Assembly (NCBI GenBank): GCA_044892505.1
Contig: CM097882.1
Location: 13,888,001-13,952,000, forward strand
Length of the DNA: 64,000 nucleotides
Origin: Schmidtea nova
Lineage: Eukaryota
Direction: 5' to 3'
Position numbers and translations under genes: made by a program. The notes under the pieces were generated by a model that had not been told where the DNA came from, ran no database searches, and saw only the letters and a list, made by a program, of their open reading frames with translations. Positions 2 through 28,240 of this stretch are shown here, one piece after another (the stretch's first letter is position 1; each line of letters begins with the position of its first letter).

Positions 2-2665
2 AGAGAAGCAGATGAAATATTCCTCACAGAAGAGAACAGACAAAAAGAATTGATAGAGGAATTTAAAGAGGTATTGTATAAACAACCATTTGATGATAAC
101 GAAACACTGAGAATAATCAATAAAATAAAAGTTAATGGGATTGAATTAGACAAGCTTAGAAATTTGATACCAATGATGGTAAAGAGGCAAAATATAACAA
201 AAGTATTTGAATTGGAAATAGAAATAAAAGAGATGTTAAAATGTTATGGAGAATATATAAGAAAAAACGAAAGATTGCACGAAACACTAAATGTAACGAT
301 CGAGTCAAACGATAACTACTTTTTCAGTAACAAACAACGGGTACATCCCTGCACTAAAGTGAGCAAATTAAAACGAATGGTAAGAGCCAAATGGCCAGGA
401 ACCATAGGAGAGAAAGATGTAATAAAATTATATTTTAACAGAATAGAATTATTAAGTGACGAGTACTTAATCGATTATGGGATAAACCCAATAAGTGATA
501 ATATTGTGGTAGCCACAGTAGAAAAACGAATGATCGATGAAATAGTGACGCCAGTACCGTCGGTTGAGCTGAGTATAAATGAAGAAAACGATTTTGATAG
601 ATTATTTAGGCTATGGGATAAATCACCTAGCGAAACAAAGAAATCAGTAATGGATGAAGAAATTATATTTAAACCTATAGATGAAAAGTATAGTAACTTA
701 CAAGAAACAATAGAAAGAATAGCTGAGGAAGCAAAAACAAAAGATGCAGAAACATCAAAACGAGGTAGAGGAAGACCTCGAAAATCAGAAATAATAGATA
801 AATCGGAGAATAGAAAGACAGCAGAACGATTAAGAGAGATTACAAATCAACATAAACATGAACAACCAGAGTATCAAGACGATAATAATGACGTAAACAA
901 AATAAAAGAAGTAATAAAAGCAATGAATATTAAGCTATTTCCAGAAACAAAGCCAACAGTACTAATTGAAAATATAACTGAAAGGATGATGTTAATTAAA
1001 AAGGATACTAAAGAACTAGCTACAGAGGAAGCAAATGAAAAAACAGTGTTAAAAATCCTGTTTAATACAGGGATAGATAAAGATAAAATAATAACGGCCA
1101 TGGCATACTTGGCCGCAAGATATAAAAAGCTCATAAAGGAAAATCCAAAAGAGCAATTAGAAAAAGTAGCAACAATGATGTTTAAAAGATTGAAAGTAGA
1201 GGCAATACCATGGATAAAAAAGAAAGGAGGATGGAAAGTATTATATGATAAAGATACGACGAATAAAGAGAGTGATACAGATGATGTAATAAAACAATTA
1301 ATAAAGAAAGCAACAGTAAAACCAAAGACAGAGAGTAAATCGATAACCTCCATAGTAATAGTCATAATCACTTTGTTATTAGATTTAATCAAGGGGGGCA
1401 ATGCAATGGTAGCATATGATTGTCAAAATCCAAAGTGGGGACAAAAATACTCACTGTTAGATGTTGAAAATTGCCCTGAAGCAAATCCAACTAAATTAAT
1501 CATGTCAGAGCCTCAAATATTCCATGTTTATCAAGAATCAGACTTTATTCATACAGAGGCTAAAGAGTGCATAGTAAAGTATCAGGAGGAAGCATATATA
1601 TGTCATGTTGGGGCAAGAACAGTGTTAAAACCTACGTGGACACCCGAAGCAGTAATATTGTCGCCAATAGAGTGTGAAGATGCATTTAAAACAAAGAAAG
1701 TAAAATATAGCGGTCATAAAGGAATAGAACTAGAAGCAAGGATAGGGGCAAAAATGAGACAAGATGTAAATGTTGTGGGATGGACATCAAAAGGAGGATA
1801 TTGTGAAGGAGGAGAATATACAATATGGGGCGAAAAACTGAGTAATGTTGTAGTAAGGAGACACTACATGGTAGAACTGAGAAAGTTCAAAGCATCATTC
1901 GACAGCAGCTCAAAGAAAATGATGATATACAAATTTTGTAGATTAGAAGAATCTTATTGCGATACAGGAGAATCAATGCTAATATACAAAATAGATAAAT
2001 ACGATTGTCAGTTAACAAAATTAAAATCATTAAAATTTAGGGAAATCAAAGGAAAACAGTTCACAGAAGTAGACTCAAAAAGGGTGAGAGATCAAAAAAG
2101 GAAAACAACAATTGTACAAGAAAAAGATACACCAACAATATATATGTCAGAATCTGAAAACGAAGCAATGAGGTTCGTTAGTAAAAGGAAAAGTGTAAAA
2201 TGTGGTAAGGAAATAATACAAACTAATTATGAAGGGATATACATAAGCAAAGAAGAAGTCAAAGATGCAAAACAAAAAGTAAATAAATTCGACGTCAAAC
2301 TTGCATCATACTTCAACAATAAAATCGATTTTTTCTATCATAACCAACTAGTACAATTAGATAAAGTATATCAATCAACAATTATGAGCGATTGCAAACT
2401 CAACAGAGAAATATTAAGGACAAAAATGGCAGTGGCGGTAACAAACCCAGATTTAATGGCACCAATAATCTTCTCAGAAGAAGGAACATTTGCAAGGATA
2501 GTAGGAGAAGTGATACAGACATTTCAATGTAAACCTGTTAGTGTATCGTTAGCAACAAATAATCAGTGCACTAATGAATTACCGGTAATATATAAAGGAG
2601 AAAGGGTATACCTTCAACCAATTACTAGAATATTAACAGAAAAAACATATATACCGAGAAAATAG
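2..2665 (+). pseudogene. Element A polyprotein N-terminal part: ubiquitin-like (~290-530), AT-hook (~760-785), Bcl-2-like (~890-1250), signal/anchor (~1345-1405), chuvirus-like glycoprotein ectodomain (from ~1406)
   Basis: Frame is open from position 2. Motifs: VHPCTKVSKLKRMV...KLYFNRIELLSDEYLIDYGI (Ubl); RGRGRPRK; LFNTGIDKDKIITAMAY and PWIKKKGGW (BH1/BH2); AYDC...SLLDVENC...ECIVK (Mono/Chu-type G). Ends in a one-base frameshift at ~2660. Confidence 0.8.
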
Positions 2666-3799
2666 AAAAATGCACTAACCTATTAGACCCATTATACAAA
2701 ATAAATGACGAAATGTGGATATCTATGTCAGATAGAAAGGAGGCAATGAAACCACTCAAATTAGAACTCATAGAGCTAGAAAAAAGATTAGAGTTTAAAG
2801 AAATCAACGATATGGACAGCAAGGGTATATATACGAGAGAAGCTATAGAAAGTGCAAGAAAACACATGTTATTTCCAAACGAAAAAGAAAGAGTACTTTC
2901 AATAATGGTTAACAGAGTTATCGAAGGAAGTTACGGAGGAAATTACAACTTTGATGTGTTATTATCAAAAGAATACTTTAAAAAAGTAGCATATAAAGTA
3001 CTATATAGCATATGGGGATACTTTGCAGTCCTTGGAAACATGTTTTCTACAATCTTAGGTATATATTATACGGTTGCATTACTAAAAATGATATGTTCTT
3101 CTCTAGTATCACTGAGACAGCTAAAACAAGTATTTGGAAATTCATATAAATTATTAGCATGTTTGTGCCCATTTATAGCTAAATATCTTATTACGGCGAA
3201 ACACGACAAGGAAATACGTTTAATAAAAGTCCAAAGGAATGAAGAAAGGCAATTATTGGTAGATGATGAAAACGATGAGGAAATAATTAAAGCGCATATA
3301 TCACATGAAGGAAATGTACCACAACAAGGACTATATGAAAACCAAAGAGAACAACTAAAAGAGCTACAAGAAAATATAGAAATCAAAATTCCTAGAGAAA
3401 ACAAGAATTGTCACTGTGAACCTAAAAAGATATATGGTTGTTATAGCTTAGAAGTCGAAACAATGGAACGATTAGATGCAGCAAACGAAGCAAGACCAAG
3501 ACTTAAAATAATTATAAACAATATAATCATAAATGCATTAGTAGATACAGGAGCAGCAACATCCTTAATTAGAGAAGATCAACTGACAGATGATCAGAAA
3601 AGAAATATTATGAGCACAACGGATAAAGTAGTATCGTTATCAGCACATTGTATTCCACTAAAGGGAGACATAGAACTAATAGTCGAAACACCAGAACAGG
3701 TAATAAACCACATATTTAAAGTGGTGCAAGAATGTAATAGCATATGTATATTGGGAATCGATATACTCAACAAGTTAGAAAATTGCATTATAGATTTAA
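2641..3799 (+). pseudogene. Element A polyprotein continuation: glycoprotein C-terminus with TM segments, then retropepsin protease (first copy, cut by the insertion)
   Basis: The shifted frame reads IEKCTNLLDPLYKINDEMW...; hydrophobic YSIWGYFAVLGNMFSTILGIYYTVALL; ALVDTGAATSLI. Confidence 0.85.
2848..3799 (+). repeat. 952-bp direct repeat, left copy (partner 11871-12822)
   Basis: Both copies run from GAAAGTGCAAG to ATAGATTTAA and their translations are identical. Confidence 0.95.
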
Positions 3800-4472: not shown

Positions 4473-4566
4473 AGCTCATCCACACGAGAGGAGAGAACAC
4501 ATTGTTCATCTCCAAATTTATATTCACCATTAGGCATTTGAGTTTCAGTTGGAATCATTTTTGAAA
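4473..4566 (-). repeat. 94-bp exact repeat of 11781-11874 (encodes the first 29 codons of ORF1)
   Basis: Identical AGCTCATCCACACGAG...ATCATTTTTGAAA. Confidence 0.95.
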
Positions 4567-4732: not shown

Positions 4733-4852
4733 AGTTTCACAGCACCTCGTATTCCCAGGCGGTCACCCATCCAAGTACTAACGAGGCCTTAACCTGCTTA
4801 ACTTCCGAGATCGAACGACATCGGTTGAATTCAGACTCGTTTAGTTGTTGTT
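4733..4852 (-). rRNA. 5S rRNA: 5S rRNA gene; nt ~19-120 well conserved, 5' ~18 nt replaced or overlapped by the retroelement ORF end
   Basis: Minus strand reads CTGAATTCAACCGATGTCGTTCGATCTCGGAAGTTAAGCAGGTTAAGGCCTCGTTAGTACTTGGATGGGTGACCGCCTGGGAATACGAGGTGCTGTGAAAC, followed by Pol III terminator T-runs. A and C boxes are recognisable. Confidence 0.92.
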
Positions 4853-6241
4853 AATTCGAATGAATTGCTCCTCGTTTTCGAAAATGGGTAGTGTACCATT
4901 CTTGTGGAAGTACCATCGTTTTGCCGAGTGTGCAATATTACTAATTGCACACTTTTTTAATAACCCAGCCACCTGGCCTTTATTTATGCCAATTTTCTGA
5001 AGGATCTGAGGAGTTTCTACAGGAAAAGAGCCAAGAGCGCCTATAATGCAAGTATCGAGTTCAACTTTAAAGTCTGGCTTGACAGTTTGAATATCGATTT
5101 TCAGAGAGTTGTAATTTTCCAAATTCAATAAATTTACACGCTCAAAGTTACATAAAGAATCACTCGGACATTTAAGGTCAACAAGGAAGATTCTTTTTCT
5201 AAGAACATCAGTTATCAGCAAATCCACCCGCTCTTTAGAACTCGGAACAAGTGAACAGGCATGGTTGACAACAACAATTAGGTTTTTATTAAGTTGGAGA
5301 TGATTAGAAATGAGTTTAAGGCAAGCATCGTGTCGTTCAGAGCCCAAAGTCATATGAACTTTGCACGATTGAAGTACATGTGATGAGGTTTCATCCTCAT
5401 CATGACATCGACGACAGAGTCTTTTCTCTCCACTATTATAAGGCTTTGCAAGGGTGGAAAGAGTGTTGGTGCGTGCTCTATGGACAAAGTTCCAAGCAAA
5501 CTCGGATAAATCACTGCGATAGATAGCTTTGTTTACTGTCGGTGAAAGCTTTACAGATGAAGCGATAATGTTTGAGACACAGCTTTTTTCCCATTTAACC
5601 AAGTATGAATCATTGAGCGCTAAGTGCAACACTTTTGCCGTGGTCTCACGTTCGTCCGGAGTTACAATACATGTACCACGTGCGTTCGTATTAATATAGA
5701 GACATAGTACATTATTGGTGATAGTAAAAGTGATGTTGATGTCGTGCGTCTTCTCAAAAAAAGCAATCGCAATCCTGGCTCTTTGAAATCGAGTTTTCTT
5801 TCCAGAATGGGGAGAAAGAGACTCTTTTCCATTGAGCCATTCAAGACTTTCCTGAAGAGTTGGATTTTTTATCCCAAGACGTGGACTGGTGATAAAAGCT
5901 AAAGAGTCAAGATTAATTTTCCTTGTAAAGTCACACTGTGACGTGATTAATCGAAAAAAGTGTGTGATAGTCTGTGTGTGATATTCGTCGAGGAGATCAA
6001 CACAGTTTGCTCCCCCATTTTCAGTTGAATTGTAGAAATAACTCACTTCCGAGTGATTAGGCAAAAGCAGCATTTTTCTTAAGGTTTTCCTTAACTGGCT
6101 AGTGATGTTAACTGAAAGATTTTTATTATCATAAGATTTTGAAAGTGCACTAGTTTTAATTTCACGGGTTCTAAAAGGGAAGATCAAGCGAGAATGGATA
6201 AATACTTTGTAAGCTTTAAGTTTTTGCCACCCAAGCAAATC
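4841..6241 (-). pseudogene. NeSL-like ORF2 C-terminal part: RT thumb, CCHC knuckle, RLE endonuclease
   Basis: GGANCVDL, CRRCHDEDETSSHVLQSC, RHDACL, ERVDLLI, LVDLKCP. Confidence 0.9.
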
Positions 6242-9200
6242 CTAATCAGCAAGTTTTTTGGTGTCTTTGAGTGCCTCCAGTAGAATGTCGTAAGGACTTT
6301 GGTCAGTTCCTTCGCCAACTGGCACACCTAGGTATTGATAAAATTCATTAGACAGTAGTTTTTTTATTTTAACTCCATTGATTGAAATTTCACTGTCAAT
6401 GTGAATTCTAGGAAGTTGCAGATAAGCACATTTCTCTGGCCGATATTCAAAGCCTATATTGGTTGCAGTTGTGACAGCAGTGTTAATGAGTTTTTGCAGG
6501 TCATTAGGAGATTTAGCGAAAATTGCGATGTCATCTGCATACGCGAGAATTTTGACAGATGATTCTCCAATAGCAAAAGCATCACAGACTGTTCTGGAAA
6601 CAGCTTCCAACACAGGATTAATCGCCAAAGCAAACAAAATCATGGAGATGGGACATCCTTGCTTGACACCCTTTTTAATTGGGATCTTTGGTGTCAGAAT
6701 AGGACCACAACTATAGAAGGAGCTTGTGTCAGAATATAAAAGTTCTAAGATGGAGGTAAAGTCTTCACTTACCCCAGTGTATCGGAGTAAGGACCACATG
6801 TAATCATGTGGGACACTACCAAAAGCATCTTTTATGTCGAGCCAAGCAATGGAAAGAGGACAGTTTTTACTATATTTGGAATGTTCCAGAGCAGCAGACA
6901 GAATCGAGTTGTGTTCAACGCAACCTTCATGTTGGGAGCCACCTTTTTGTCCAACATGTAATAGTTTATTAGAGTTTATCCAGCGTGCAAGACGAGAGGC
7001 TAGACAGGACGCAAAAACTTTGTAGATGACGGATAGCAAGGCAATCGGGCGCCAGGATGATATATCTGAATATTTATCATTTTTATTAGGTTTCGGGATT
7101 AGAGTGGTTTTGTAGACCTTCCAACTGTCCGGTATGGACTTCTCTGTAATGATCTTGTTGAACAAGAAAGTAAGTATATGACCATCAGGATCTAGACGCA
7201 ACAAGTCACGATATTGTAATCCATCAATACCAGGACTAGTGTTGTCAGCCCTCCTAAGTTCATACATCACTTCCCTATTCGAGAAGCATTTCAGAGGAAG
7301 TACATTTTGAGAGTGTTTACAAAAGTCAAATAGTTTCTCCCAATGCCCACGTGCAGGTGTTTCATGAGAAAAGTTTTTAACTATGTTCTGAAAAGTTGGT
7401 CGAGCCGGTACATCGAAATTGTTGATGACCTTATTGACAGCTGACTTCATATCTTTCATGAATAAATCGATCAATTTATTTTTGCTAATTTTAGAAGTTT
7501 TAATTTTGGTTCCCAAGTATGGTTTTTTAGCTGGTTTCACTTTTTCAGGGAATTGCTCCATAATCGCGTGAATAATTTCATTTGTGCTATAATTTGCCCA
7601 TTTAATTAAAAATAGTTCAGCATTAGTTCTCTTTTGTTTTATCGGAACTCTCAATATAGCTTTATGAATAATTTTAGTGTTACTTGGGTTTTCTATATTA
7701 TCGTGCTGCCTGACAAAGATAAGCAAAGAGCCAACCACGTCTCCAATCTCGCGCAAGTTTAAATTTACAAGGGGCAAATTTTTCGAGAAATTATTAATAA
7801 ACGCACACAAGAGAATTTTACTAACAAGACCTGAGCTGCGGATGTCATGGGGACATTCAGAAAGATTCAAAACGCGGCCAGGTGTATCTTTTATGTCATT
7901 TATTTTATTTCTCAGAATTCTGCAAGTAGACAGATAATTGTCATTCACAGTTAAAGATGTTGGGTTTACAAGATAAAAGGTGTCAACACTATAATCGAGA
8001 ATGAGCAAAATTTCACGATGTTTAGGGGGAGCAACAATCGCAAAGATGATTTGTGATTTGCATATATTTTCAAAATTCAGAAAATCATTTATGTGTTGAG
8101 TACAATCGTCAAGAATAGCCGTGCACATGGTCACACTCAGTAAAAAAAAAGTCTTGGGTAAATTTAAATTATCAAAAAACATTGAAATTATTTTATCCGA
8201 AATTTTAGAATTAAGTAAGTTTAGATTCTGAGAGATTTCATTTGTTTCCCTTAATTTTATTGAGTTTAATGATTTGTGTATATTTAAAAAATGAATAACT
8301 TTATTAAACAAAAGTTTCTCAAGAAGCTCAATAAAAACCGACGCAAAGAGAATTGTATCATCAGAGATGTTGGGCACCAGTTCCAAGCCGTGGTTAGGTT
8401 TAAAAGAAATGTTTGTTGATAGAAAGAACTTATTCAAGTAGTCAGTAATATTTTCGCCGATGCCAAGTAAACGGTCAGAAATAGGTTTTTCTTGATTGTT
8501 AAAAACGTAACTTGCACCATGTGTAATAGAAAAAAGATATAAACACCAGTAATTATCATTCGGGATAACACTGATGACATGGTTAATCCCTAGAAAATTT
8601 TTTAACGTGACATTTTCTCTAATAAATGAGTTATTTCTAGAGATTATATTTAGTGTAAGTTCTTGGGACAGGACCAAGATGTCTTTATGGTCTTTAAACC
8701 ATTCGGTAATCAAAGACGAGATGCAGGCATTACGTTTCATAAGGAAGATGTGGTCGTGTTTATTAGAAATATTTAGAGTTGTGTCTTTTTTCACTCTCTT
8801 AGGGTTAGTGAGTTTAGATTCACCACCTCCAGATGATTTTGGGACCATGTTATTTAAAGTAAGTTTAAATTGGTAGACATCTTTTCTGATATTTTCTATA
8901 AAATCATCAGGAAATTTTTGCCATGTACCACTTATCATCATAGCATAAGCACAGATGTAAGGCCCACAGTCATAGTTATTATTTTGGTAGACAAAGTTTT
9001 TATGTGGGTGGAAAAATAGTGCAGCTTTAAGGTTAAAAAGACGATTCAAAGCGATTGTAGTTTGAAGAGCGTCGGCTCTATTGGTCAACGAATGGCGGTT
9101 GTTGAAAAGAGGATCTACAAAGTATGAAGTTAAAGAAGTTTTACAATACACAAAAATAATCCAATGAGTTTTATTAATATTTATTGGACATAGTAGAGTT

Positions 9201-9466
9201 TGCGCAGATATTACTCTGTCTGGCATTCGAAAAATGGTTTCGCAAAGATTTGCCCGTAAGATTTCTATTTGAAAGCATTTTATTGGAGCAAATTTAGGGT
9301 CATTGATATGACATTCAAGATAGTTATCAATGTCATCATCAGTAAACCATATTTTAGGGTCACGCAATATATTTGTGATTTTAGATGGTTTAAATTTTTT
9401 GGGAAATGTGCTGTCTGCATCAGTCTCTGTTGAGATTGGGGCAGATATTGAGACTGGTGCAGGCAC
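6242..9466 (-). pseudogene. NeSL-like ORF2: Ulp1/C48 protease domain(s) + reverse transcriptase, cut by in-frame TAG
   Basis: RT motifs as above. TAG at 6244-6242 is followed in frame by DLLGWQKLKAY. Confidence 0.92.
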
Positions 9467-9472
9467 ACAACT

Positions 9473-11866
9473 TCATTTGTTTTTGATAGCCGTACGTTTG
9501 GGTTTTTTAATAGGCTTTTTCGAAGAGTCTTGAGACTCACTATCAATTAATTCAGTGTTTGATGTCAAATTTTCATCAATATCGACAGGAAGTTTATTTG
9601 TAGGGTTTTCTACCAAATTGTAATTTATTTCGGCTTCATCGCATTCAGGAATAGAAAAAAGAGGCTCGTTTACAAGCTTTTCAGTATTCTCATTGTTCCC
9701 CATCACAGGCTTATCAACCTTTTCTATAGCAGGTTTTTCATTGACAGTTAGCTTAATAGAGCATAAGATTCTAGATATACCTTCGCTCATTTCTGGAGTA
9801 CAAATCTTTCTACAGTACTTGGGAACGCGGAAAGTAAATTTATTTTTTAAAAGAAAAGTTTTTTTATCTCTAATAAGAAAGAATAAGAGTCTTTTCGCTT
9901 TCAAGGTGTTTGAGTTATCCAAATCGTCTTGGAATTCGTTAATTCCACGTCCTATATTTTCAAGTGCCGTTAGTTGTTGTGCTTTATTTGGCAAAAGATT
10001 TTCGATAGAATCAAAGAAGTTGTTAATATCCAAAATAGTTTTTGGAGAGATGATGTTGTTTATTTTATCGATCTCTTGAAGTATAAAAGTTTGTTTGAGT
10101 TTTAGGAAGCGCTCTTGGCAGCTTTTGTTATAATAGGAGTTGGTAGGTAGTTTTTTAATTAGTTCCATAGCCCAGGATTCAATATTATCGCAGCATAAGG
10201 AGTCTACACTCTCAAGCTTCACAATCGAGTGCATTAGGAAGCAGTTACGAATGTAATTATAAACATATATATTAAATGATAAATTTATTTTGCATTTTAA
10301 AGATCCCTGTAAGTTTAGGTAATTTAAGTAAAATATTATATTTATTAATTTCTCAGGTGACTGAGGCTGTTTTAATAATTTATTGAACTCAATGTCCACA
10401 TTTGACATTTCTACAAAGTCTAATAAGCCAAGATTAAACATTATGTCAGACGCACCATTATCGTGCAGTCCAACAGAGTTTTGAAAAATTTTATTTTTAA
10501 CAAATTTACCCCCAACAAATGAAATCTCATTAGGAAAATGTTTTATAGTTTTTAATTCTTTAATTAAATTAATTAATAAATCAGGATACCTGTTCACGTT
10601 TTCCATAAAGTAGAGCTTTGGAATTTCAGGAAAGGATCTTGTTAATTCTTCCAATTCAGAGCGAGAAAGATCGATTGGGTTTAGATCAGTGCTGTCGCCA
10701 ACTAATTCATCGGAATTAATAAGGTCTAACAGAAGAAACTCTCCATTTGAATACTTTAACTGAGAATTGATTAAGAAATTCGGAATCTCTCCACTTTGTT
10801 TTAGTTCGTCTAAAATTTTATTAATTCGGATCTCCCGATCCTTAACATTTTTTATCGTAATAGTTCCTGAAAATCTTTTTGTGAGGGCATAAAGAAACTT
10901 CTTTATGCAAAGAGAGGCAGGAATAAACTTATTACGGTTACTCAAGGGTTCAATAACTTTGGAGCCTATTAGGTAAGTTTTATTTTTAGATTTTTTACCA
11001 TCAAGAGCGTTTGGTTTGTAATCAGTGGGCCCAAACTCAATTAGGACACAAATATATCTATTTCTATAAAAGAGCTTACTAAATCCAGCGATACCCAGCA
11101 AGTTGTCCGTTCTCGGAATTTTACTTAGTAAATTATTTATTTTAGAAAATTTCTGTGCTGAATCTCTTAATTTAATCAATTGGGAAAGTTGTGGGAATGA
11201 TTCAAAAAGTTTTTGTCTTTCTCTTTTATAAAGGTGACGTGGGAAACTCGTTAAGAAACGTTCAACCTTTGAAAAATGTTTTACATGACTTATATCAGGA
11301 TTTTCCCCATCAAACTTAATCTTAACTATGGAATTTGACTTCTCAGGTTCAGCAGACTTCTTTTCTACTTCCACTCCCACAAAAAAACTTTCATTTGATT
11401 TTCCATTGATCGAATTGTCCAGTTTAAGCTCTGGAAAATCAACTTTTTCTGAATATGCTGAAATCAACTGAGATTTATTTTTATTATCATTTTTAAATAA
11501 ACTAATTTTTATCTGGGACGGCTCAATTTTATCCCCTTTCAAGTCCCCGACCAGAGAAATCCTCCTATTATCTCCAAAAGTAAATCCATCAACATTTGGG
11601 TGCTGATCCACAGATCGAACACTATCAGCATTTCCAATCTCATACAATCGTTGCGATTTCGCAAGATTGTCAAAAAAAGAAACATTATTTTTATCAAAAA
11701 ATTGTGTTTCATTGTTATTTAAATTTAAAAAATTAACAATCAAATCAAGCTTACTAAGGATTTTCTTGAAAGAAGCATCCAGCTCATCCACACGAGAGGA
11801 GAGAACACATTGTTCATCTCCAAATTTATATTCACCATTAGGCATTTGAGTTTCAGTTGGAATCAT
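9473..11866 (-). CDS. NeSL-like element ORF1 / N-terminal region (~800 aa, no recognised domain)
   Basis: Long ORF, same frame as ORF2, separated from it by a single TGA. Confidence 0.7.
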   Translation of the reverse strand: MIPTETQMPNGEYKFGDEQCVLSSRVDELDASFKKILSKLDLIVNFLNLNNNETQFFDKNNVSFFDNLAKSQRLYEIGNADSVRSVDQHPNVDGFTFGDNRRISLVGDLKGDKIEPSQIKISLFKNDNKNKSQLISAYSEKVDFPELKLDNSINGKSNESFFVGVEVEKKSAEPEKSNSIVKIKFDGENPDISHVKHFSKVERFLTSFPRHLYKRERQKLFESFPQLSQLIKLRDSAQKFSKINNLLSKIPRTDNLLGIAGFSKLFYRNRYICVLIEFGPTDYKPNALDGKKSKNKTYLIGSKVIEPLSNRNKFIPASLCIKKFLYALTKRFSGTITIKNVKDREIRINKILDELKQSGEIPNFLINSQLKYSNGEFLLLDLINSDELVGDSTDLNPIDLSRSELEELTRSFPEIPKLYFMENVNRYPDLLINLIKELKTIKHFPNEISFVGGKFVKNKIFQNSVGLHDNGASDIMFNLGLLDFVEMSNVDIEFNKLLKQPQSPEKLINIIFYLNYLNLQGSLKCKINLSFNIYVYNYIRNCFLMHSIVKLESVDSLCCDNIESWAMELIKKLPTNSYYNKSCQERFLKLKQTFILQEIDKINNIISPKTILDINNFFDSIENLLPNKAQQLTALENIGRGINEFQDDLDNSNTLKAKRLLFFLIRDKKTFLLKNKFTFRVPKYCRKICTPEMSEGISRILCSIKLTVNEKPAIEKVDKPVMGNNENTEKLVNEPLFSIPECDEAEINYNLVENPTNKLPVDIDENLTSNTELIDSESQDSSKKPIKKPKRTAIKNK

Positions 11867-11870
11867 TTTT

Positions 11871-12822
11871 GAAAGTGCAAGAAAACACATGTTATTTCCA
11901 AACGAAAAAGAAAGAGTACTTTCAATAATGGTTAACAGAGTTATCGAAGGAAGTTACGGAGGAAATTACAACTTTGATGTGTTATTATCAAAAGAATACT
12001 TTAAAAAAGTAGCATATAAAGTACTATATAGCATATGGGGATACTTTGCAGTCCTTGGAAACATGTTTTCTACAATCTTAGGTATATATTATACGGTTGC
12101 ATTACTAAAAATGATATGTTCTTCTCTAGTATCACTGAGACAGCTAAAACAAGTATTTGGAAATTCATATAAATTATTAGCATGTTTGTGCCCATTTATA
12201 GCTAAATATCTTATTACGGCGAAACACGACAAGGAAATACGTTTAATAAAAGTCCAAAGGAATGAAGAAAGGCAATTATTGGTAGATGATGAAAACGATG
12301 AGGAAATAATTAAAGCGCATATATCACATGAAGGAAATGTACCACAACAAGGACTATATGAAAACCAAAGAGAACAACTAAAAGAGCTACAAGAAAATAT
12401 AGAAATCAAAATTCCTAGAGAAAACAAGAATTGTCACTGTGAACCTAAAAAGATATATGGTTGTTATAGCTTAGAAGTCGAAACAATGGAACGATTAGAT
12501 GCAGCAAACGAAGCAAGACCAAGACTTAAAATAATTATAAACAATATAATCATAAATGCATTAGTAGATACAGGAGCAGCAACATCCTTAATTAGAGAAG
12601 ATCAACTGACAGATGATCAGAAAAGAAATATTATGAGCACAACGGATAAAGTAGTATCGTTATCAGCACATTGTATTCCACTAAAGGGAGACATAGAACT
12701 AATAGTCGAAACACCAGAACAGGTAATAAACCACATATTTAAAGTGGTGCAAGAATGTAATAGCATATGTATATTGGGAATCGATATACTCAACAAGTTA
12801 GAAAATTGCATTATAGATTTAA
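11871..12822 (+). repeat. 952-bp direct repeat, right copy
   Basis: Matches 2848-3799. Shares 4 bp (GAAA) of microhomology with the end of the insert. Confidence 0.95.
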
Positions 12823-13388
12823 CAGATAATACGATAAAGAGAAAAGCAATTAAACATAAATCCAAGTTCACAGAAGTTGTTGCATTAGAAGCATTTGAAT
12901 TGGAATATGAATGCGATCATATTATTCCCTTAAAAGTTAACATCAAAAGTGAGGACACTTTTATTTTTGAGCCAGAAACGGCAATTATACAAAATCAGAA
13001 TATAATGCTAACCAATGAATGCGTAATTCCGAGAAAGGGAATAATACCATTGAGAATAGCAAATTATGAAAAAAGTAATGTTAAAATACACAAAGGTACG
13101 AAATTGGGAAAATTATTCAAAGGTGAATTAGAAAAAACGTACGAAGTTAGTGAGATAAGTGTGATGAATGATAACGGCAAGAAAGTAGTCGAACCTAGTA
13201 AGATAAATAATATAAAATCATATGACAAAGTAAAAATTAATAATGAATACTTAACAATAACACAACAAGCACAACTACAAACATTGATAGATAAATATAG
13301 TGATGTTTTTGCAAAACACGAATTTGATCTAGGAGATACCGATATAATCAAACATGTAATAGATACAGGTAATGCGAGACCAATATAA
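11889..13388 (+). pseudogene. Element A: duplicated glycoprotein tail + retropepsin protease + post-protease linker
   Basis: DTGA. Ends at an in-frame TAA that is followed by QRPYSVPY...WASPIVPVKKKDG. Confidence 0.9.
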
Positions 13389-16300
13389 CAAAGACCATAC
13401 AGCGTACCATACAAGTTAAGAGAGGAAATAAAACGACAAATCAAAGACCTAAACGATGCAGGTGTAATAAAACAGAGTTTTTCACAGTGGGCATCACCCA
13501 TTGTACCCGTTAAAAAGAAAGACGGAGAAATAAGAATGTGCATTGACTATCGTAAATTAAATGATGTAACAGTAAAAGATTCATACCCATTCCCAAAAGC
13601 ACAAGAGCAATACGATAAACTTAGGGATGCTAAGTATTTTTCAGTTATTGACGCAAATAAGGGATATATGCAAATTCAAATGGAGGAAGGGGATGCGGAA
13701 AAAACAGCATTTGTTATCGAGGATGGTTTATATGAGTACACACGATTACCTTTCGGGTTAACTAACGCACCAGCTACATTTCAGCGACTAATGAACACAA
13801 TATTAGTAAATGTACAACATTGCGCAGTTTATATGGATGATATACTAATATCATCAAAAACATTTGAGGAACACTTAAAAGATATAACAAATGTACTCGA
13901 GAGACTAAGAAAAGCAAAAATTAAAATTAAACCAACTAAGTGTAAATGGGCAGAACCTTCGGCGTTATTTCTAGGGCATATAGTTACAGTAGAAGGGATA
14001 AAACCAAATCCAGAAAAAATAGAAGTTGTAAAGAAATTCCCAATACCAAAAACAGTACAACAAGTACAAGGGTTTTTAGGTCTAACAGGGTACTATCGTA
14101 AATTCATACAAGATTATGCAAAGATAGCATCACCGATAATAGAACTAACAAAGGGAATTAGAACAAAAGGAGAATGCAAAGATGTGTTAATAGTACAAGA
14201 AATTAACAACAAAGTTAACAAGATACAAAAGAAGTGGACAAAGGAACACCAAGAAGCATTCAATAAACTAAAAGAAAGATTGATAACAGCACCAGTGTTA
14301 AGATACCCAGATTTCGAAAAACAGTTTATAGTAATGACGGATGCCAGCGGGAAAGCCGTAGGAGCAGTCTTGGGCCAAGAAGAAGAGAAAGGGAAAGATT
14401 ACGTAATAGCATATGCCAGTAAAACATTAAAAGGAGCACAGCTGAGGTATTCAACAATAGAAAAAGAATGTTACGTAATAGTATTCGCCCTAAAACAATT
14501 CAAACCATACATATATGGGACTGAAGTGATAATAAGAACTGACCATAAACCATTAGAAGGTTTATGGAAACATAAAGATACATCAAGTAGATTACTTAAA
14601 TGGGCAATGAAAATACAAGACATGCACCTAAAGATTATATATAAACCAGGTAGAATAAATAAAAACGCAGATGCACTATCAAGAATACCAGAATTAGGAG
14701 CACTTGAAATATTTGCACTGGTAGCAGAAAAGCCAATCGATATATATGAGGAACAGATGAAAGACCCAGAGAACAGTAAAATAAGGAATGAAATCAGAAA
14801 AGAAAACAATTCAAAGTATAAAATATCAAAGAAATTAGTAGTAATAGAAGATTTCAATGGTAAGCAACTAATAGTAGTACCTCAGAAATTAAGACAAATA
14901 CTCCTACTACAATATCACGATGGAGCATTAGGAGGTCACTTATCATCTAGAAAGACAGCAAGTAATTTATTACAAAAATATTACTGGGAAGAATTAAAGA
15001 AAGATGTTAAGAGATGGTGTAACGCGTGTACAATATGTGCAACAAGAAAAAATACAGGTACAAAAACAAAAGCACCATTACATCCCATTCCAGCAACGAC
15101 ATCACCAATGGAACTATGTGCAATGGATTTTCTATGTAAATTACCTACTACAATTAATGGGAATAAACTAGTATATAGTAATTATTTTACTAAATGGGCA
15201 GAAGCATTTCCAACAAAAGACGAAACAGCAGAAACAGTTGCTAAATTGCTTATAGAAAAAATTATTTTCAAGATAGGCACACCCAAAAGATTATTAACAG
15301 ATAAAGGAACAAATTTTACTAGCGAATTAATAAAAAGAGTAGCTAATATTTTTAATATGCAAAAGATTAACACAACAGCGTATCACCCTCAAACTGATGG
15401 ACTAGTAAAAAGGTTTAATGGTACATTACTAAGCGGACTAGCTGTTTTTGTAGGAAAACATCAAAATGATTGGGACGAATACATAAGTCAATGCACATAC
15501 ATTCATAATATCACTCCAAACGAAACAACAGGGTATTCACCGTATTATTTAATGTTTTTAAGAGAACCAGCAACACCAATAGATACAATATTTGAACCTC
15601 GAGTATCACAATATTTAGATGCACCAGATTATGTCACACTAATGCAGGAAAAACTGCAAGAAGTGTATAAAGTAGCCAATCTAAAAGTCAAATATAGACA
15701 AGAACAGTACAAAGCCGACTACGACAAAAATAGTAAACCACACAACTTTAAAGTAGGTTATAAGGTTAGACTTATGTCACCACAAGTAGGAAAGGGAAAG
15801 ACAACAAAACTAGCAAGACCATATAAAGGTCCATATGAGGTAGTAAAAGTAATAAATGAGAATTTACACTTACAAAAACATAAAAACGAGGATCCAATAG
15901 TAGTACATGTCAACAGATGCAAGTTGGCGGAAGCCGAGGTCACGATAGATAAACCTCACAAGTATAATCTAAGATCTCATAACAAACTAATAATATCAGC
16001 TATCTTCTTAACAATCATAACATTCGTTGGCTCAACCAAAACAATAGAATTTGACAAAATATTAATAAAAATAGCAACAAACGAAGTTAGAGTATTTATC
16101 ATAAATAGAGGAGTAATTGATATATACATGCAAACAACGAATGGGAAAAATCCAAAGATGATAAAAGGAAAAGACGACAGAACAACCAACGAAATCGAAA
16201 GAGGAAGCTATATTAATTTCACAAAACTAACACCTAATACAATATACAGAATCTGCATACAGAGAAACACAGATACAACAACATGGAGATGCAAAAAAAT

Positions 16301-16769
16301 AAAAACAGAACAATTACCCAAGAATATAACAAAAAATCATAACATAACAAAAACACTCGATAGAATAAAAAGCACAACAACGACATCAGATAATATACTA
16401 AATACCACACCACATACAAACGAAATACCAACAAGCACTGAAATAGCCAAATTCCAAAAACAATACAATGCCAAAAAACAAAAACAAGAACCTATCAAAA
16501 TAAGGCAAGGAAGACCAATAGTGATACATAACTTAGAGGAACTACAAGCATTTCGTAAAGAGGATAAAAAGCCACATTGGCCTTATTATATCATCACAAC
16601 ATCAATAATAGCATTAACAATTTTAGCTTTAATAACTAGCGTACAAATTTATAAAAAGTACAAATGGAAAAGGCAGCGGTATCGGAGCCGACAGGTCAGA
16701 AATGTACCAGGGCATTTCCATTTGGGCAAATATATACCAGGTGAATATACAAAATCCACATTGGTGTAA
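13389..16769 (+). pseudogene. Element A: RT-RNase H-integrase fused to signal + FN3-like + Thr-rich stalk + TM; third integrase catalytic residue is K
   Basis: CIDYRKLN, LPFGL, YMDD, TDASG, H..ALGGH..C..C, TDKGTNF, GLVKRFN (E>K at 15408), GPY; then LIISAIFLTIITFVGS, LTPNTIYRICI, TM YYIITTSIIALTILALITSV. Confidence 0.92.
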
Positions 16770-16928
16770 TACGTTTTGGTCAATAATAATAATTAAAATC
16801 ATATATATTCGTATTTATATAGCGTATAAGGTTAAACCGACAATACGCCTTAAACAAAAAACTTTATCCTTTATTTTTAGAAAAGAATACACGAGCAAAA
16901 CAAAGCAAGTTCCAACAAACTCCGAAAA

Positions 16929-17186
16929 CCCAATCAATCTCGTGAATTCTACACACCAATCAAATCATTGCGACAACCATTCAAAAATCTCAATAAATAC
17001 AATCATCTCTTTTTTAAACTGTCACAACAAACAATCAAAAAACCCTACTAATTATCTCTATACAAAATACCCAATCAATCTCGTCGATTCTATAAACCAA
17101 TCGAATCGTTACGACAATTACCCATATATCTCAATATATTCAACTATATCTCTGTTAAACTGTCAAAACCCTATTAATCATCTCTC
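16929..17186 (+). repeat. ~141-bp diverged tandem duplication in the 3' region of element A
   Basis: CCCAATCAATCTCGT at 16929 and 17070, with similar following sequence. Confidence 0.75.
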
Positions 17187-17308
17187 AAATCAATATATCA
17201 AGAAATCAATTCGATACCAATCAAAAACAAAGATGAATCAAAATCAACCTCATTTCAATCAATCAAGAACCTACCAGAAATACACTTGTTTTATGAAACA
17301 AACTCAAC

Positions 17309-19297
17309 ATGAGTTTTTATAAAAATCTACTGAACAATATATGTACTGATGGAACCCCAATTACAATTCGCAGTTTCCCAAATCAAATATGTATCCCAAA
17401 CGACATGAAAGTCGAAATAGAAGAACGGGAAATGCATCTGATAAAATTCAATGAGGCCCGAAGAGTGAAACTCAAAGAGCTTATTGGAACCTTCGACAAA
17501 TACCAAAACGTCGACAAAGAAGTTGCCGAAAACAAAAGAATCCCTCACAGATTAATATTCCACATGACAAAAACAGAAGTTGCAATATGTCAAAATAAAA
17601 TCCCGTTAATTGTCACAAGCAACTGTTCAGCAGTTATCAAGTTAATAAGAAAAGACAGAAGCATGTCAAACGATCTCAATGAGCTGACAGTGCAGATGAA
17701 TAACCTACCATGTGTGATAGCAATCGAAGTGCTATATATCCCGACAATCCAAAATCCGTTCATAAAATTAAACCCAATACATTCAATCCTACAAATAAAT
17801 GAAGATATGATCAACCAGAAGATATCATTCACGAATCAAGAATTAACGACTGAAGAAAGGCATTCATTAACTGTAATTGTGGATATAAAAGTAGTTTAAG
17901 ATATAAACAAAAATCTCAGACCAGTGGAAATTTGTATCAGAAGCAAAAAAGGAGCAATTCTGTATAACAAGTTCATCACCCCAAGAACGAAAGTTGAAAA
18001 ATTCTACACGGAAAAAACTAAAGCTACAAAAGAAAACATAATTGGAAATGAAGACGAATATAAAGCCTTAAATGAAATTCGAAACATTCTCTATGGAAAG
18101 ATCATAGTTGGATTCAACATCATAGATAAGTTAAAACTATTGACAATAGATCTGGACAACATTATGGGCATAAGAGAAATGGCACAGGATCGATTCATGT
18201 GTTCTTTTGTAAAAAACGTGGCACCACCAAAAATAAAAATATCAAATTTGGCTTACCAGGTAATCAATTACCATAAAAGTTGGCATAAAGATAAAAAGTT
18301 AAATGATATATTGAGACAACCAGAACCATTCTCAACAAAGATCACCACAATGCTATTAAAAGTTATCTACGATATCACAGAAAATAAATGGGAAGAAGTT
18401 GTCAAATGGGATTCCGCAACACTTCTTAAAAGGAAACAAGCAAATGGAGAAGAACAACTAGAAACAATATTCGAAAACGAAACAGAGAGCGAAGCAGAAA
18501 GTGAGATAGAAAGTGAATATGAAGATGGAGAAGGCATGGAGCCGTCCCTTGGGGAATCAATAAAAACCAATCATAATAAACCAAAAAAGTCATTCATGGA
18601 AGAGCTCATGGACAGTGACGACGATGAACTCATGATCATAAAAGAAGAAATACCACTTATCGCTCCAACTAGAGGAATCAAAGCAGAACCCAAAATTCAA
18701 AATATTCTATATGAAAGAATGGACGAATGTGATATAGATGATGAATATTTCTCAGCAGATGAGAACATAGAAGAACCTTCAACCAGCAGTAACGACATCA
18801 AAATGGAAGAAGATAATGAAGAACCATCAACAAGTAATAAATACAACATAATGGAAGAGGATATCGGACAAGAACCAAACGTTGAAATGTTAGCCGACTG
18901 GACAGAACCAGAAGAATCAGATTTCATAATAGACAAAGACAAGAAATACGTCTCAGAAAAAGATCTCTGCACTCATTTTGGAAGACAAATTGAGCACGAG
19001 GAGACAATAAACCTTGCGATAAAAAATAGATTTCGAAAAACAACAATTCAAATAAAAGAGAAAAGAATTGATTTAATATTGTGTGACAAGGGTAATGAGG
19101 ACATTACTTTGACGGCCCGGGGAGGAATGTTGGATGATGAAGGTAAGCCCATCAATACATTCCTCTTATCCGAAAACTATAGTGTGGGAGGCGGCAGGTA
19201 CAGAATAAATATTTATGCAGAGCCCGTTCAAGAAGAAGCAAATATCAATCAATCTCAATACGGTAGATCAAGACAACAATATCCATTGGGCATTTAA
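17309..19297 (+). pseudogene. Accessory ORF of element A with a degenerate REXO4/ISG20-like DEDDh exonuclease domain and an acidic region; one in-frame stop at 17897
   Basis: The two ORFs share a frame. VIVDIKVV*...ILYNKFITP...ILYGKIIVGFNI..KL..L...IRE follows the ISG20/REXO4 pattern with acidic catalytic residues altered. Confidence 0.65.
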
Positions 19298-21284
19298 TTC
19301 TTGACATTATCATCTTTGGTGAATATTGATTAACAATCTATGACTTTTCAACTGATTCAACACCAGTCAGAACCCCACAAAGATCAATGACACAATAATA
19401 CAGTTCCCATCCTCAAACATCTCAAAGATCAATCAAATCAATGTGATTTTAACAAACTGTGAGCCTATCTTATTTGTGATCATAACAATCAAAGACAACG
19501 AATCCCCAAACAACTATATATATGAAATTACAAATTTATGATTTGATTCACTATATATTTATTGTTTTATCCACTGTATTTTTACCTTGCTATTATTTTA
19601 TTCTGTATATTATTATTTTATTTTTAATTTTACATATTGGTTTGTATAAATATGGCAATATGGAAAGAATTTATATTATTATTTTATTTTTAAATTTTGT
19701 ATGACAATATGGAAAATATTAAAGGGCAAATTAGGACATTTCAAATAGGGAAATATTATTCATTCACATTTCAAATGTAATTATCATCGGAAATTTAAAA
19801 GATAAAAATGATATTTAAATATAATTATTTACAATTAGAGTAGAAAATTTTAGTATATAAACTGATGTAGATATCAGTACAATGCCCACAATTTTTTGAA
19901 ATTCAATTTCAATCAAAATTTTGCGACATAAACTTTCTCAAAGGGTAATCCTGCGAGAACTCAAAATTCACGGACAGCACAAAAACGTCCAACACGAAAT
20001 TTTTATAACTAAAATAAACATAATACATTCACGTAAATAACAAGCACACAGTAGGACACGCAAAAAATATCTTTTAAATAAACTTTGTAAAACAGTTGTA
20101 CAGATTTGAAAGTGTGATTTATAACTTTTGATTTTTGATTTCGGTAAATTTTGTTATTGAATAAATTTTTCAAAAAACTTGATCTTATTTTTATATACTA
20201 TAGTCTACACCAGTGCACGTTGAGATCTAAAAATCTTGGACCTCAACATTATAATATTTTGAGTAGTGCTTTGATTTAACGTTTATCATTGAAGTGTTTC
20301 AAAAATTATAATAAAAATTATACTAAAAAAAGTAAATTAATAATATTTAAAAAAAATAAATAACTAATTAAAAAAATAATTAATTAATAAATAAAAATAA
20401 AATAAATAAATAAAAATTTAATTATTTAATAAATAAATAAAAAAATTCCAAACATTTAAACAAAACACACTTTAAAAATGGCGCCAAAAAACGCGCGATA
20501 ACTCATACGGATCCAGATAGCTCATGTCCTTCTACTAATAACAAAAAACAAATGGGAACATCACATGGGGATTTAAACTAAAAATCAAAATAATGTCAAC
20601 ACCCAAATTATCATAATCGATAAAAAAATAATTCCGATCAAGTACACTACACAGAGCTTCACGGGAACCGTTGATGACATAGCTACTGTTCCATAATCCT
20701 AAACGAAATTATCGGGATGGAGACATTAAAATAACAAAATAAATTTATTTTACTGCTGAACTTGATACCACTGAGTTTTACAGAATAAATACTACATATG
20801 TCATAGATGATTTCAGATGGAAAAATGACGCTGATAAAAAGATTATTTTTAAATTCGTGCAGCTGATGACAATGATTTATTTTATGAAAATTGCAGCTCA
20901 TTATATAGTTGCTGCTGCTTCAGATTAACCAATTAGGTTTGAGTCACACACGAATATGTAAGTGTATTTTATTTTATATAACCAGTAATTATTTGATTTT
21001 AACTGATAGGGTTTTTCTCTTTTAACCAAAAATTTTATTAAATCTTTTAAAATTTATGATTTATTTTTATTTTAATCAATATTTTCCATATAATTGGACT
21101 AAAAGGGGTTTTCTAATTATTTGTCTTCATTTTCGTTAAAATTCCTTATTTTTAATTTCTGTTTCGCTAGTTTATTACTATTTTTGTCTTTATTTTATTT
21201 TATTAATTCGTTTTCTTTTATTATTTTATTCTGATTCCCCCCTTTTTTATATTTTACTTCTTTTGCTCGGATGTAGTGCCTCGG

Positions 21285-25250: not shown

Positions 25251-25485
25251 TCAAGTGACTTATCTTGTCAATTACCCGATTTTCAGGTTGTTTGTTTACG
25301 TGTGTTCATTTTATCTTTGATTATTCTGTTAAATAACAGATTTATTCGTTCCATCTAATTCGATTCATTTGTTATATAGGCGCTTTGTGGTGGTCCGGAT
25401 GATGTGTTCTCATTTTGGCTGTTTATTTGTAAGCCTTTTTATCTTTGTTAATTCCTAATAGTAGTAGGAAGTGAGCCCGCCAGAT

Positions 25486-26430
25486 ATAGGTCAAGACCCC
25501 CCCATAGAAAAAAAATTTTTTTATGTAGGTCAAATTTTTCGCTTAAGGACACTTTAAGGTCAAATTTTTCGCTTAAGGTCACTTTGAGGACACTTTAAGG
25601 TCAAAAAAGTAGGTCAAAGTCGTTTTAAGGACACTTTAAGGTGAGTTTAAGGTCAAATTTATGGTTCAAGGACACTTTAAGGACAAAAAAGTAGGTTAAG
25701 GTTGTTTTAAGGACACTATAAGGTCAAAAAGAATGCCAATTTAAGGTCACGATAAGGACAAATAAAGTAGGTCAAATATTTTTAAGGTGAATTTAAGGTT
25801 AAAATAAGTAGGTCAAATATTTTTAAGTTGCTATGACAACGAATAAGTAGGTCAACTTAATTTTTTCAAAATTTGATAGTTGCTATGACAACGAATTAAG
25901 TAGGTCAATAATAATTTTAAAAATTTTTCTATGTCAGAATTAAGTAGGTCAAATATAAAAAACTTGAAAATTTTTCTATGTCAGAAATAAGTAGGTCACG
26001 AAAAATTTTCTATTTCAGAAAAAAGTGGGTCAACTTTATTTTTCTCAAAAATATTTCTATGTCAGAAATAAGTAGGTCAACTTTATTTTTATAAAAATTT
26101 TCCTATGTCAGAATTAAATAGGTCAAATATAAAATTATTCAAAGTTATAATATATTTAAAATATTTTCTATGTCGGAATTAAGTAGGTCAATTTAAGGTC
26201 AATGTGAGGACGAATTAAGTAGGTCAATTTAAGGTCAATGTGAGGACAAATTAAGTAGGTCAATAATAATAATAATTTCTAAAATTTTTTCTATGTAAAA
26301 ATTAAGTAGATTAATAATAAATTTCGAAACTTTTCAAAGTCAGAATTAAGGGTACATTCAGGGTACTATAAGGTCAACAAAGTAGGTCAAATAGATAATT
26401 TTCTATGTCACAATTATGTAGGTCAAATAT
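25486..26430 (+). repeat. Subterminal array of AAGTAGGTCA/AAGGTCA motifs (mirrored at ~33625-34530)
   Basis: About 15 or more GTAGGTCA copies in degenerate 30-45-bp units. Confidence 0.85.
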
Positions 26431-27811
26431 AAAAACTTTAAAATTATTCTATNNNNNNNNNNNNNNNNNNNNNNNNNNNNNNNNNNNNNNNNNNNNNNNN
26501 NNNNNNNNNNNNNNNNNNNNNNNNNNNNNNNNNNNNNNNNNNNNNNNNNNNNNNNNNNNNNNNNNNNNNNNNNNNNNNNNNNNNNNNNNNNNNNNNNNNN
26601 NNNNNNNNNNNNNNNNNNNNNNNNNNNNNNNNNNNNNNNNNNNNNNNNNNNNNNNNNNNNNNNNNNNNNNNNNNNNNNNNNNNNNNNNNNNNNNNNNNNN
26701 NNNNNNNNNNNNNNNNNNNNNNNNNNNNNNNNNNNNNNNNNNNNNNNNNNNNNNNNNNNNNNNNNNNNNNNNNNNNNNNNNNNNNNNNNNNNNNNNNNNN
26801 NNNNNNNNNNNNNNNNNNNNNNNNNNNNNNNNNNNNNNNNNNNNNNNNNNNNNNNNNNNNNNNNNNNNNNNNNNNNNNNNAATATTATTGATAATAATAA
26901 TATTATTGATAATAATAATAAATAAGATTAATCATAATCATAATAATTAATAATAATAATAATATTATTTTTCTTTTTACCCTTTCATTTGTTCATTACC
27001 GATTGTAATTGTCTCATTTCTTTTTCGAAAAGTTCAATCATCTGGCACAATAGATATTCATTTTTAGACAATTCCGATATTTGCATTGATCATCGCGTGA
27101 AACTTGACTGTTGAGAATTTCAAGAATTTTCGGAACACTTTTCTGACAGCCTGAAATAATTAATTACATATGGTTGGAAATTATTGCTAAAAATTAACAA
27201 AAATTACATTTCAAGTAAAATAAAAAATCTAACTAGATAACGCTAAATAAATAATCAAGCATTTCATAGATAAAAATATGTCCTCTTTCTCTAAATTCAT
27301 CTTCACAAACTAAATATAAAGTTATTAAATTAAATAAATATGTATTATATATAAAAATAACCTGAAATGTGATTTAGTAACGATTCCATGTTAACAAGTT
27401 TTGAAACATAATATTGATTTGCCCTAGTACGCTTCACGGTAAATAGGGATAATAAATTCTTCCATAGTGAAGATATAAAAATTTATGTATAAATTATTAA
27501 ATTTGTGTATAAATTATTCAAATTTTTGCAAATAAATACAGTTTTTAAACAAATTATTTAAATTAAATTATTTAAATTAAATTATTTAAAGTTAATTAAT
27601 TAAATATTTAATTTAATTCTTTACTTAGAGAAAAGTAAATAATATTAAATAAATATTATTAAATAATATTAATAATATTAAAAGTTAATTAAGTAAATAA
27701 TATAAATTAATTTAGTTAAATCCAGATTGGTTTTAATAGTCTTCAATTCCGTCCTACTTTTATTAAAATTTTATAAAGTGTCAAATAATGAATTATTTAA
27801 ACACTATTTAA

Positions 27812-28240
27812 TTTAAATATCCAACTCTCCCCTTCTTAAGACCTTTTCCACTTCAGCCACTCGATTCTTCTTCCTTTCATACCTTCTTGCGAGTGTTTTA
27901 CTCGTTATTTGAGTCTGAAATCAAATGGTCACATGTCATTGTGGCGTTCATGTATATAAAACAGATAATGGATAATTCGGGTTCAAATTATGAAAATTAT
28001 TTTCAATGGTCAGTACAGGTATATTATTTTTATTTAATTATATTATTAATATTATTTTAGATTATCGAAAGTGAAATATGTCCCTGGGTTCAAGAAAATG
28101 GACAATGGCAAAAACTACTAGAATTGGCCGAAAATAGTAGAACTATTAGGAAAACCAAAGAAAGATTGAAAAATCTGTTGAAAATAACAATTGGACTCTG
28201 TAGTATTTATGCTATTGTAAATTTAATTCATCGAAAATAA
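27812..28240 (+). CDS. Bcl-2-like gene (BH1-like, BH2, C-terminal TM) with 42-nt intron 28019-28060; 5' end uncertain
   Basis: LFESEIKWSHVIVAFMY...WSVQ|IIESEICPWVQENGQWQKLL...ITIGLCSIYAIVNLIHRK*. The phase-0 GT-AG intron joins in frame. Confidence 0.75.

Follow-up and report, generated by a model that had tools for sequence, protein, structure and literature searches.

Results

A Bcl-2-to-Env junction inside a retroelement polyprotein

The window, by which we mean the whole stretch of Schmidtea nova DNA analyzed (64,000 nucleotides), opens within a frame of 887 amino acids (2..2665; the features of the polyprotein are on the plus strand) that forms the middle of a polyprotein with the order Gag, ubiquitin-like, Bcl-2-like, Env, protease, RT, and integrase. 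The frame is open at the 5' end of the window, and the DNA upstream codes for a Gag-like region with a zinc knuckle. The feature of interest is the junction from Bcl-2 to Env inside this single polyprotein, which belongs to a Burro-type gypsy LTR retroelement that is young, multicopy, and about 13.9 kb long. The element has LTRs, and its protease, RT, RNase H, and integrase lie in one ORF together with Gag, as expected of gypsy. An intact copy elsewhere in the genome has a total length of 13.9 kb, LTRs of 1074 bp that are 99.6% alike, and one ORF of about 3073 amino acids encoding Gag, CCHC, Bcl-2, Env, protease, RT, RNase H, and integrase. Among the best 150 of 2764 candidate junction matches in the genome, identity ranges from 84 to 100%, and 136 are free of stops across the junction, a figure skewed toward intact copies. 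Contigs from two sequencing runs of unrecorded kind cover the junction stretch, from which nothing on expression follows.

The copy in the window is broken, with an open frame of 1377 amino acids versus up to about 3073 to 3082 in other copies. Its Env frame breaks near 2660, and an interruption of about 8 kb follows the retroviral-type aspartic protease (3487..3780; Pfam RVP, E = 9e-8). The element continues past the interruption at 11871..16769 with a repeat of the Env end and protease, then RT, RNase H, integrase, a second signal-like stretch, and a membrane segment. Its 3' LTR (19128..20250) matches, at about 99% identity, sequence immediately preceding the window (L031:7178-8389).

Within the frame, a probable ubiquitin/SUMO-like domain at 317..526 is recognized by its sequence pattern and by a position matching the Ubi2/SUMO-like motif of Burro (PMC6431247); the region has no Pfam match in the window copy. 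An AT-hook-like motif, KRGRGRPRK, follows at 758..787 (Pfam PF02178, E = 0.31, below the cut-off) and is similar in relatives with and without Bcl-2. The Bcl-2-like domain is internal to the Gag-Pol polyprotein, about 790 residues past the first Met of Gag, and is separated from the sequences leading into Env by a polar, variable linker (1262..1303) that has no hydrophobic stretch and a dN/dS of 0.25 to 0.65 in most pairs of copies.

The Bcl-2 fold is real and under purifying selection

The Bcl-2-fold domain occupies 866..1261 (aligned model residues 33 to 164) and comprises helices 1 to 8, with no tail anchor of its own. In the window copy, the Pfam Bcl-2 match at 854-1402 (E = 7e-7, 30.1 bits) falls just below the 31.4 cut-off, which some copies elsewhere in the genome pass. 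A profile built from 16 relatives, 12 of which match Pfam Bcl-2 at E ≤ 0.5, matches Bcl-xL with E = 3.5e-7 and places DKDK on NWGR, and this sequence homology extends across BH1 and BH2. A profile-profile comparison was set aside as circular, because element rows stood in both of its alignments. The AlphaFold model (mean pLDDT 68, pTM 0.63, core 84 to 93) is a helical bundle of helices 1 to 8 around a central hydrophobic helix 5. When it was compared with 48,161 chains, the 35 best matches were all Bcl-2 folds, the best with Z 12.9 and rmsd 3.2 over 130 aligned residues, against Z 5.3 for the first unrelated fold. Foldseek likewise placed only Bcl-2 and Bcl-xL in its top ranks, with a best E of 4e-3 and none reaching 0.001, and gave ASFV A179L as the closest viral structure. 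A second family, 15% identical, was modeled with the same fold. The initial annotation had named structure prediction against Bcl-2 folds as the check on its Bcl-2 assignment, and that assignment is borne out.

The domain is not peculiar to one family. At least eight distinct families of the genome carry it at the equal position, with 15 to 40% identity to the window family and 15 to 23% between distant Bcl-2-bearing families. Selection was estimated on 11 pairs of natural copies, which are not independent of one another; dS was saturated in 3 and estimable in 8, and in 7 of these 8 the Bcl-2 core has a dN/dS of 0.12 to 0.26 (p ≤ 3e-5), the remaining pair giving 0.50, which is not significant. 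Env is under tighter constraint (mostly 0.05 to 0.23), and the linker is looser. The fold is real and held by purifying selection. Five related polyproteins that fall among the Bcl-2-bearing ones have no Bcl-2 domain, in the sense of no profile match, and so the domain is dispensable for this type of element.

Word-based homologue searches returned 1 protein, 5 proteins, and, with the alignment as query, 0; the viral contigs searched gave no match and the metagenome contigs 1 partial locus. The host itself holds an expanded set of divergent Bcl-2 paralogues (L041, L043, L047, L055, L061, and L064) with W-S-R/K/H in BH1. Of nine host exons, L041 gets the top score from the element profile (E = 6e-9), which offers a lead toward the donor gene. 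Bak-like and Bok-like genes are also present; no BH3 exon of the Bak-like genes turned up within 10 kb.

BH1 has lost the classical signature

BH2, PWIKKKGGW at 1208..1234, is the best-kept motif and conforms to that of classical pro-survival Bcl-2 proteins. BH1, LFNTGIDKDKIITAMAY at 1058..1108, is degenerate, with DKDK replacing NWGR. Across 19 aligned relatives, the first position of NWGR is Asn, Asp, Ser, or Thr in all 19, Trp is retained in none, Gly is found in 1 (Asp or Glu in 11), and the last position is Arg in 5 and Lys in 8. The reading in the initial annotation that the change from NWGR to DKDK alters BH3 binding holds as far as the altered BH1 is concerned, but classical binding itself is doubtful, because the Trp is lost in 19 of 19 and the Gly in 18 of 19 relatives. 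According to Table 1 of PMC6825947, human Bcl-2 W144A, G145A, G145E, and R146A each lose Bax binding completely. The loss of BH1 lowers the prospect of classical binding without excluding it, since very divergent viral Bcl-2 folds, with 6 to 17% identity, have been solved with BH3 peptides, as the structure titles among our matches record.

An extra helix lies N-terminal to the fold, at 794..853 (model helix 9 to 28, pLDDT about 50). It has a loose BH3-like pattern, present in some families only. Such a helix precedes the fold in several families (L079, L066, and L140), with the pattern closest in L079. Docking of the helix back into the groove was seen in neither of two models, one of low confidence and the other with one long continuous helix.

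The hydrophobic stretch probably belongs to Env

Between the linker and Env lies a putative internal Env signal peptide (1304..1405), with a Lys-rich n-region of net charge +4, a 14-residue uncharged h-region at 1340-1381, and a polar c-region ending G-N-A at positions -3 to -1, so that cleavage is predicted between 1405 and 1406. The basic n-region, short h-region, polar c-region, and small residues at -3 and -1 are together the anatomy of a signal peptide. All motifs quoted in the initial annotation are present in the frame 2..2665: besides those of BH1 and BH2, SIVIVIITLLL lies inside 1340-1381, GGNA ends at 1405, and MVAYDC begins at 1406. The description of the hydrophobic stretch as single is also accurate, 1340-1381 being the sole hydrophobic peak in the 887-residue frame (Kyte-Doolittle of at least 1.6, windows of 13 to 21). 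The Pfam glycoprotein model begins on this stretch (model positions 4 to 638, from residue 941 of an intact-frame copy).

Comparison with relatives bears on both the cut and its ownership. Searching 1.84 billion proteins yielded 90 matches, and four earlier proteins brought the set to 94. The YDC motif could be placed in 66 of them (27 lack YDC and 1 lacks the Env N terminus), and 61 have at least 13 residues ahead of it. Taking a putative cut three residues ahead of YDC as the register, we scored small residues at -1 and -3. These were found in 11/11 polyproteins without detectable Bcl-2 (that is, with no profile match), in 9/11 with Bcl-2, in 7/11 intermediate proteins, and in 26/28 proteins with an N-terminal signal, some of which come from truncated gene models (P0019, for example, differs little from the Bcl-2-bearing P0003). 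By a strict rule, 44/61 fit at the YDC-based register, versus at most 8/61 at nine other offsets. Junctions in the element's own genome fit in 113 of 116 cases, many of them near-copies chosen for an open frame. The proposed cleavage at GNA|MV is accordingly well supported as a predicted site. The Met at +1 was considered as the start of Env and rejected; the residue is Thr, Ile, Leu, or Phe in other families.

The length of the uncharged run varies little with the presence of Bcl-2, the median being 13.5 residues with it (n = 18), 14 without it (n = 11), and 10 in free-standing glycoproteins of 600 to 760 amino acids (n = 10). Among 18 Bcl-2-bearing relatives, BH2 was located in 17, where it sits 42 to 76 residues ahead of the predicted cut, and none of these 17 has a second hydrophobic stretch after BH2. 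The domain thus has no C-terminal tail anchor of its own: the sole hydrophobic stretch is common to Bcl-2-less relatives, and Env follows it in frame. Because an equal stretch and register occur in Bcl-2-less polyproteins and in glycoproteins with an N-terminal signal, we read the stretch as the signal peptide of Env rather than the tail anchor of Bcl-2, likely the ancestral, cleavable signal of Env used internally. The earlier idea of a Bcl-2 tail anchor doubling as a signal peptide is plausible in its effect, but the stretch originates with Env, and the entire glycoprotein family has it whether Bcl-2 is present or not.

Env and its tree

Env (1406..3114) is a Monjiviricetes-type fusion glycoprotein (Pfam Monjiviricetes_fusion, E = 8e-50) with 14 to 15 Cys, split over two frames in the window copy. 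One main membrane segment lies between Env and the protease, at about 3028-3114 and about 540 residues past YDC. It is weak in the window family (KD19 of 1.5 to 1.7), and some families have a second, weaker hydrophobic stretch behind it that could change the topology. The claim of a lumenal fusion protein after the signal is supported by this one downstream segment.

A quick, midpoint-rooted, and provisional Env tree of 53 rows places all 15 Bcl-2-bearing rows in one branch of 24 rows (SH-aLRT 96), and the Bcl-2 label requires 7 changes on it. Five Bcl-2-less polyproteins fall just outside this branch, one further away, and five inside. Under the midpoint root, the Bcl-2-less rows outside and inside the branch suggest that the internal signal came first and that Bcl-2 was gained later and then lost again.

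Other features of the window

Past the integrase, the polyprotein has a second signal-like hydrophobic stretch, a domain of about 180 residues, and a membrane segment (window 16010-16769; L034 residues 1074-1092 and 1273-1291). The domain has no Pfam match and is fibronectin-III-like by eye; this region is possibly a second membrane protein cut from the chain. The element's second ORF (16636-19297, plus strand; 869 amino acids in L034) has an acidic tail and no Pfam match.

A stretch of 952 bp comprising the Env end and the protease is duplicated at 100% identity (2848-3799 and 11871-12822), flanking the interruption of about 8 kb, and 4473-4566 is identical to 11781-11874. The duplication is either a recent rearrangement or an assembly join. 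The interruption (4734-9226 and 9473-11890, minus strand) holds a 5S rRNA gene (Rfam, 71 bits) adjoining a non-LTR element with a Ulp1-like peptidase and RT, upstream of which is an ORF of 805 amino acids. Because the 5S rRNA gene directly adjoins it, the non-LTR element looks like a 5S-targeting, site-specific retrotransposon.

A second, broken Burro1-like element at 51200-62500 (plus strand) encodes a SUMO-like domain, a protease, ankyrin repeats, a TRAF-like RING/zinc finger/MATH, an IAP-like module of BIR and RING, and coiled-coil ORFs. Downstream of its ankyrin repeats lies a signal-like stretch (53920-54390) resembling the one past the integrase. A near-perfect palindrome of about 9 kb occupies 25460-34554, with 26881-29846 matching 30315-33280 at 99.5% and flanking arms.

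Discussion

A signal peptide as the proposed tether of a captured domain

The best explanation of the junction overall, and one that we consider probable, is that the signal peptide of Env is used internally and provides the sole membrane tether of a captured, anchorless Bcl-2-fold domain. The processing part of this model, read from comparison and hydropathy for both cleavage and topology, is very likely. The hydrophobic stretch, as it emerges, would take the ribosome to the ER cotranslationally, its Lys-rich side would remain cytosolic, and signal peptidase would cut after G-N-A, between 1405 and 1406. Env would then pass into the lumen until halted by its single C-terminal membrane segment, which would bring protease, RT, and integrase back to the cytosol. 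The initial annotation had this cleavage release a membrane-anchored, viral-type Bcl-2. The predicted product is instead a chain of about 920 residues, from the first Met of Gag to the cut, in which Gag, the ubiquitin-like region, and Bcl-2 would be joined and kept at the ER by a stub of 14 residues. The chain might later be freed by signal peptide peptidase or by the protease of the element, so the tether is perhaps brief, and a free Bcl-2 product would require a further cut by the element's protease. There is precedent in hepatitis C virus (HCV), where the E1 signal peptide keeps core on the ER in like manner.

What the tethered domain does is a matter on which we are more tentative. We favor, at slightly short of an even chance, a nonclassical binding surface that damps host death or stress signaling during expression of the element, as opposed to a classical BH3 sink. 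Ranked by judgment, this role stands ahead of a structural spacer, a classical BH3 sink, and a relic, in that order. The stronger proposal of a working, ER-tethered death inhibitor, made one-to-one with the fusion protein, anchored by the Env signal peptide, and protecting the cells that express or receive the element, is on balance unlikely. Such an inhibitor would be widespread in flatworm retroelements and would form a second host-protecting module beside the Burro1 IAP; its groove would be noncanonical, and the ER-resident Bok would be a candidate target.

Alternative explanations

The closest competitor in mechanism is a lasting tail anchor with a released, classical viral-type anti-apoptotic Bcl-2, one-to-one with Env, that holds the BH3 of Bak, Bax, or Bok in its groove. 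The full eight-helix fold with pro-survival proteins as its best matches, a postcleavage topology that would equal that of a tail anchor, the host's Bak-like and Bok-like genes, and the BH3 peptides in viral Bcl-2 structures of comparably low identity all speak for it, as does the sister element Burro1, for which PMC13465017 reports a tested anti-apoptotic IAP module. We nonetheless regard it as quite unlikely, in view of the missing BH1 residues, a BH3 helix that is not conserved, an h-region of just 14 residues, and a product still attached to Gag after signal cleavage. The BH3-to-BH1 stretch, moreover, is shorter than in the alignment of the host paralogues to Bcl-xL. A matrix-like structural spacer that places Gag at the membrane beside Env in particle assembly, with no role in death, would account for the invariant placement of the domain, after Gag and before the signal peptide, in at least eight families of the genome and for surface motifs that vary around a kept fold and BH2, and purifying selection is compatible with any role that serves the element. 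However, related Gag-Env-Pol polyproteins manage without the domain (11, of which five are nested among Bcl-2-bearing ones), and such elements gather other death- or ubiquitin-related domains, as the BIR, RING, and TRAF of the window's second element illustrate; we place the spacer between unlikely and rather improbable.

Two further readings concern the stretch and the resemblance themselves. Were the hydrophobic stretch an uncleaved signal-anchor, Env would stay joined to Gag-Bcl-2 as a two-pass membrane protein. The gB-type Env ectodomains described in PMC13524379 have either a signal peptide on one side and a membrane segment on the other or a membrane segment on each side, and budding of HCV is described as starting without signal peptidase cleavage (PMC5402940), but the small -1 and -3 residues keep to a fixed register that is also the register of free-standing glycoproteins, and the h-region is short, which leaves this arrangement very improbable. 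The Bcl-2 likeness could, finally, be chance or a decaying relic, as the subthreshold Pfam score of the window copy and the 15 to 23% identity between distant families might suggest. Against this, the profile, two models, and three fold libraries agree, and dN/dS is well under 1. The selection and fold results largely refute such a reading, which we rate as very to extremely improbable.

The analysis delimits the Bcl-2 domain, establishes for at least eight families that the complete fold is under selection, and yields a precise model of processing that specifies site, topology, and tether. An active domain would mean that both major classes of cell-death regulator had been captured by retroelements, with a bearing on the host-transposon mutualism reported in planarian stem cells; an inactive one would be a Bcl-2 fold reused for particle assembly.

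Comparison with known systems

The cellular and viral Bcl-2 proteins (Bcl-xL, Bfl-1, Bok, Bak, and ASFV A179L, and the poxvirus N1, A46, A52, and B14) share with the element domain the eight-helix fold and the Trp-x-Gly-Gly-Trp of BH2. The element domain differs in being internal to a polyprotein, in lacking NWGR, a clear BH3, and a tail anchor of its own, and in its identity of 10 to 18%. Several poxvirus Bcl-2 folds act outside apoptosis.

For the processing model, the core-E1 junction of HCV is the nearest likeness, in that the signal peptide of the glycoprotein that comes next forms the end of a cytosolic structural protein and holds it at the ER after signal peptidase cleavage (PMC5402940). 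The virus is an unrelated RNA virus with unrelated proteins, and the analogy extends only to mechanism; for HCV, signal peptide peptidase is described as carrying out the release (PMC5402940). Closer in layout are the GAG-ENV-POL errantiviruses with HSV/gB-type Env reported from Platyhelminthes, Nematoda, and Bryozoa (PMC13524379). They too have Env between Gag and Pol, with an ectodomain that has a signal peptide or membrane segment on one side and a C-terminal membrane segment on the other; the likeness is drawn from their description, and in the text of that paper available to us, Bcl has 0 occurrences.

The domain order ubiquitin-like, BCL2, Env, protease is already published for planarian Burro. 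Its polyproteins have a Ubi2/SUMO-like motif ahead of BCL-2 and an in-frame Env with mononegavirus matches between BCL2 and the protease, and the link of the Burro BCL2 to apoptosis was deemed worthy of experimental confirmation (PMC6431247). That review does not use the words "signal peptide," and in the literature searched we found no paper on the Bcl-2/signal-peptide junction, with a prior mention possible in Lee et al. 2026, Grohme et al. 2018, or supplements. The Burro1 BIR-RING module was tested as anti-apoptotic (Lee et al. 2026, as cited in PMC13465017), and BURRO1 transcripts are documented in PMC8532177; in the sources covered by our search, the BCL2-like motif of Burro-type elements has so far been named rather than tested. 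The window family resembles Burro/GYPSM1 in its single polyprotein with Gag, Ubi2/SUMO-like, BCL2-like, in-frame Env, protease, RT, RNase H, and integrase and in its many young copies (PMC6431247). It differs in size, with about 13.9 kb, LTRs of 1074 bp, and an ORF of about 3073 amino acids against more than 30 kb and 4873 to 5140 amino acids for Burro (PMC6431247), and its ORF has no Pfam match to TRAF, BIR, or ankyrin. The window family is a smaller relative of Burro and not Burro1 itself.
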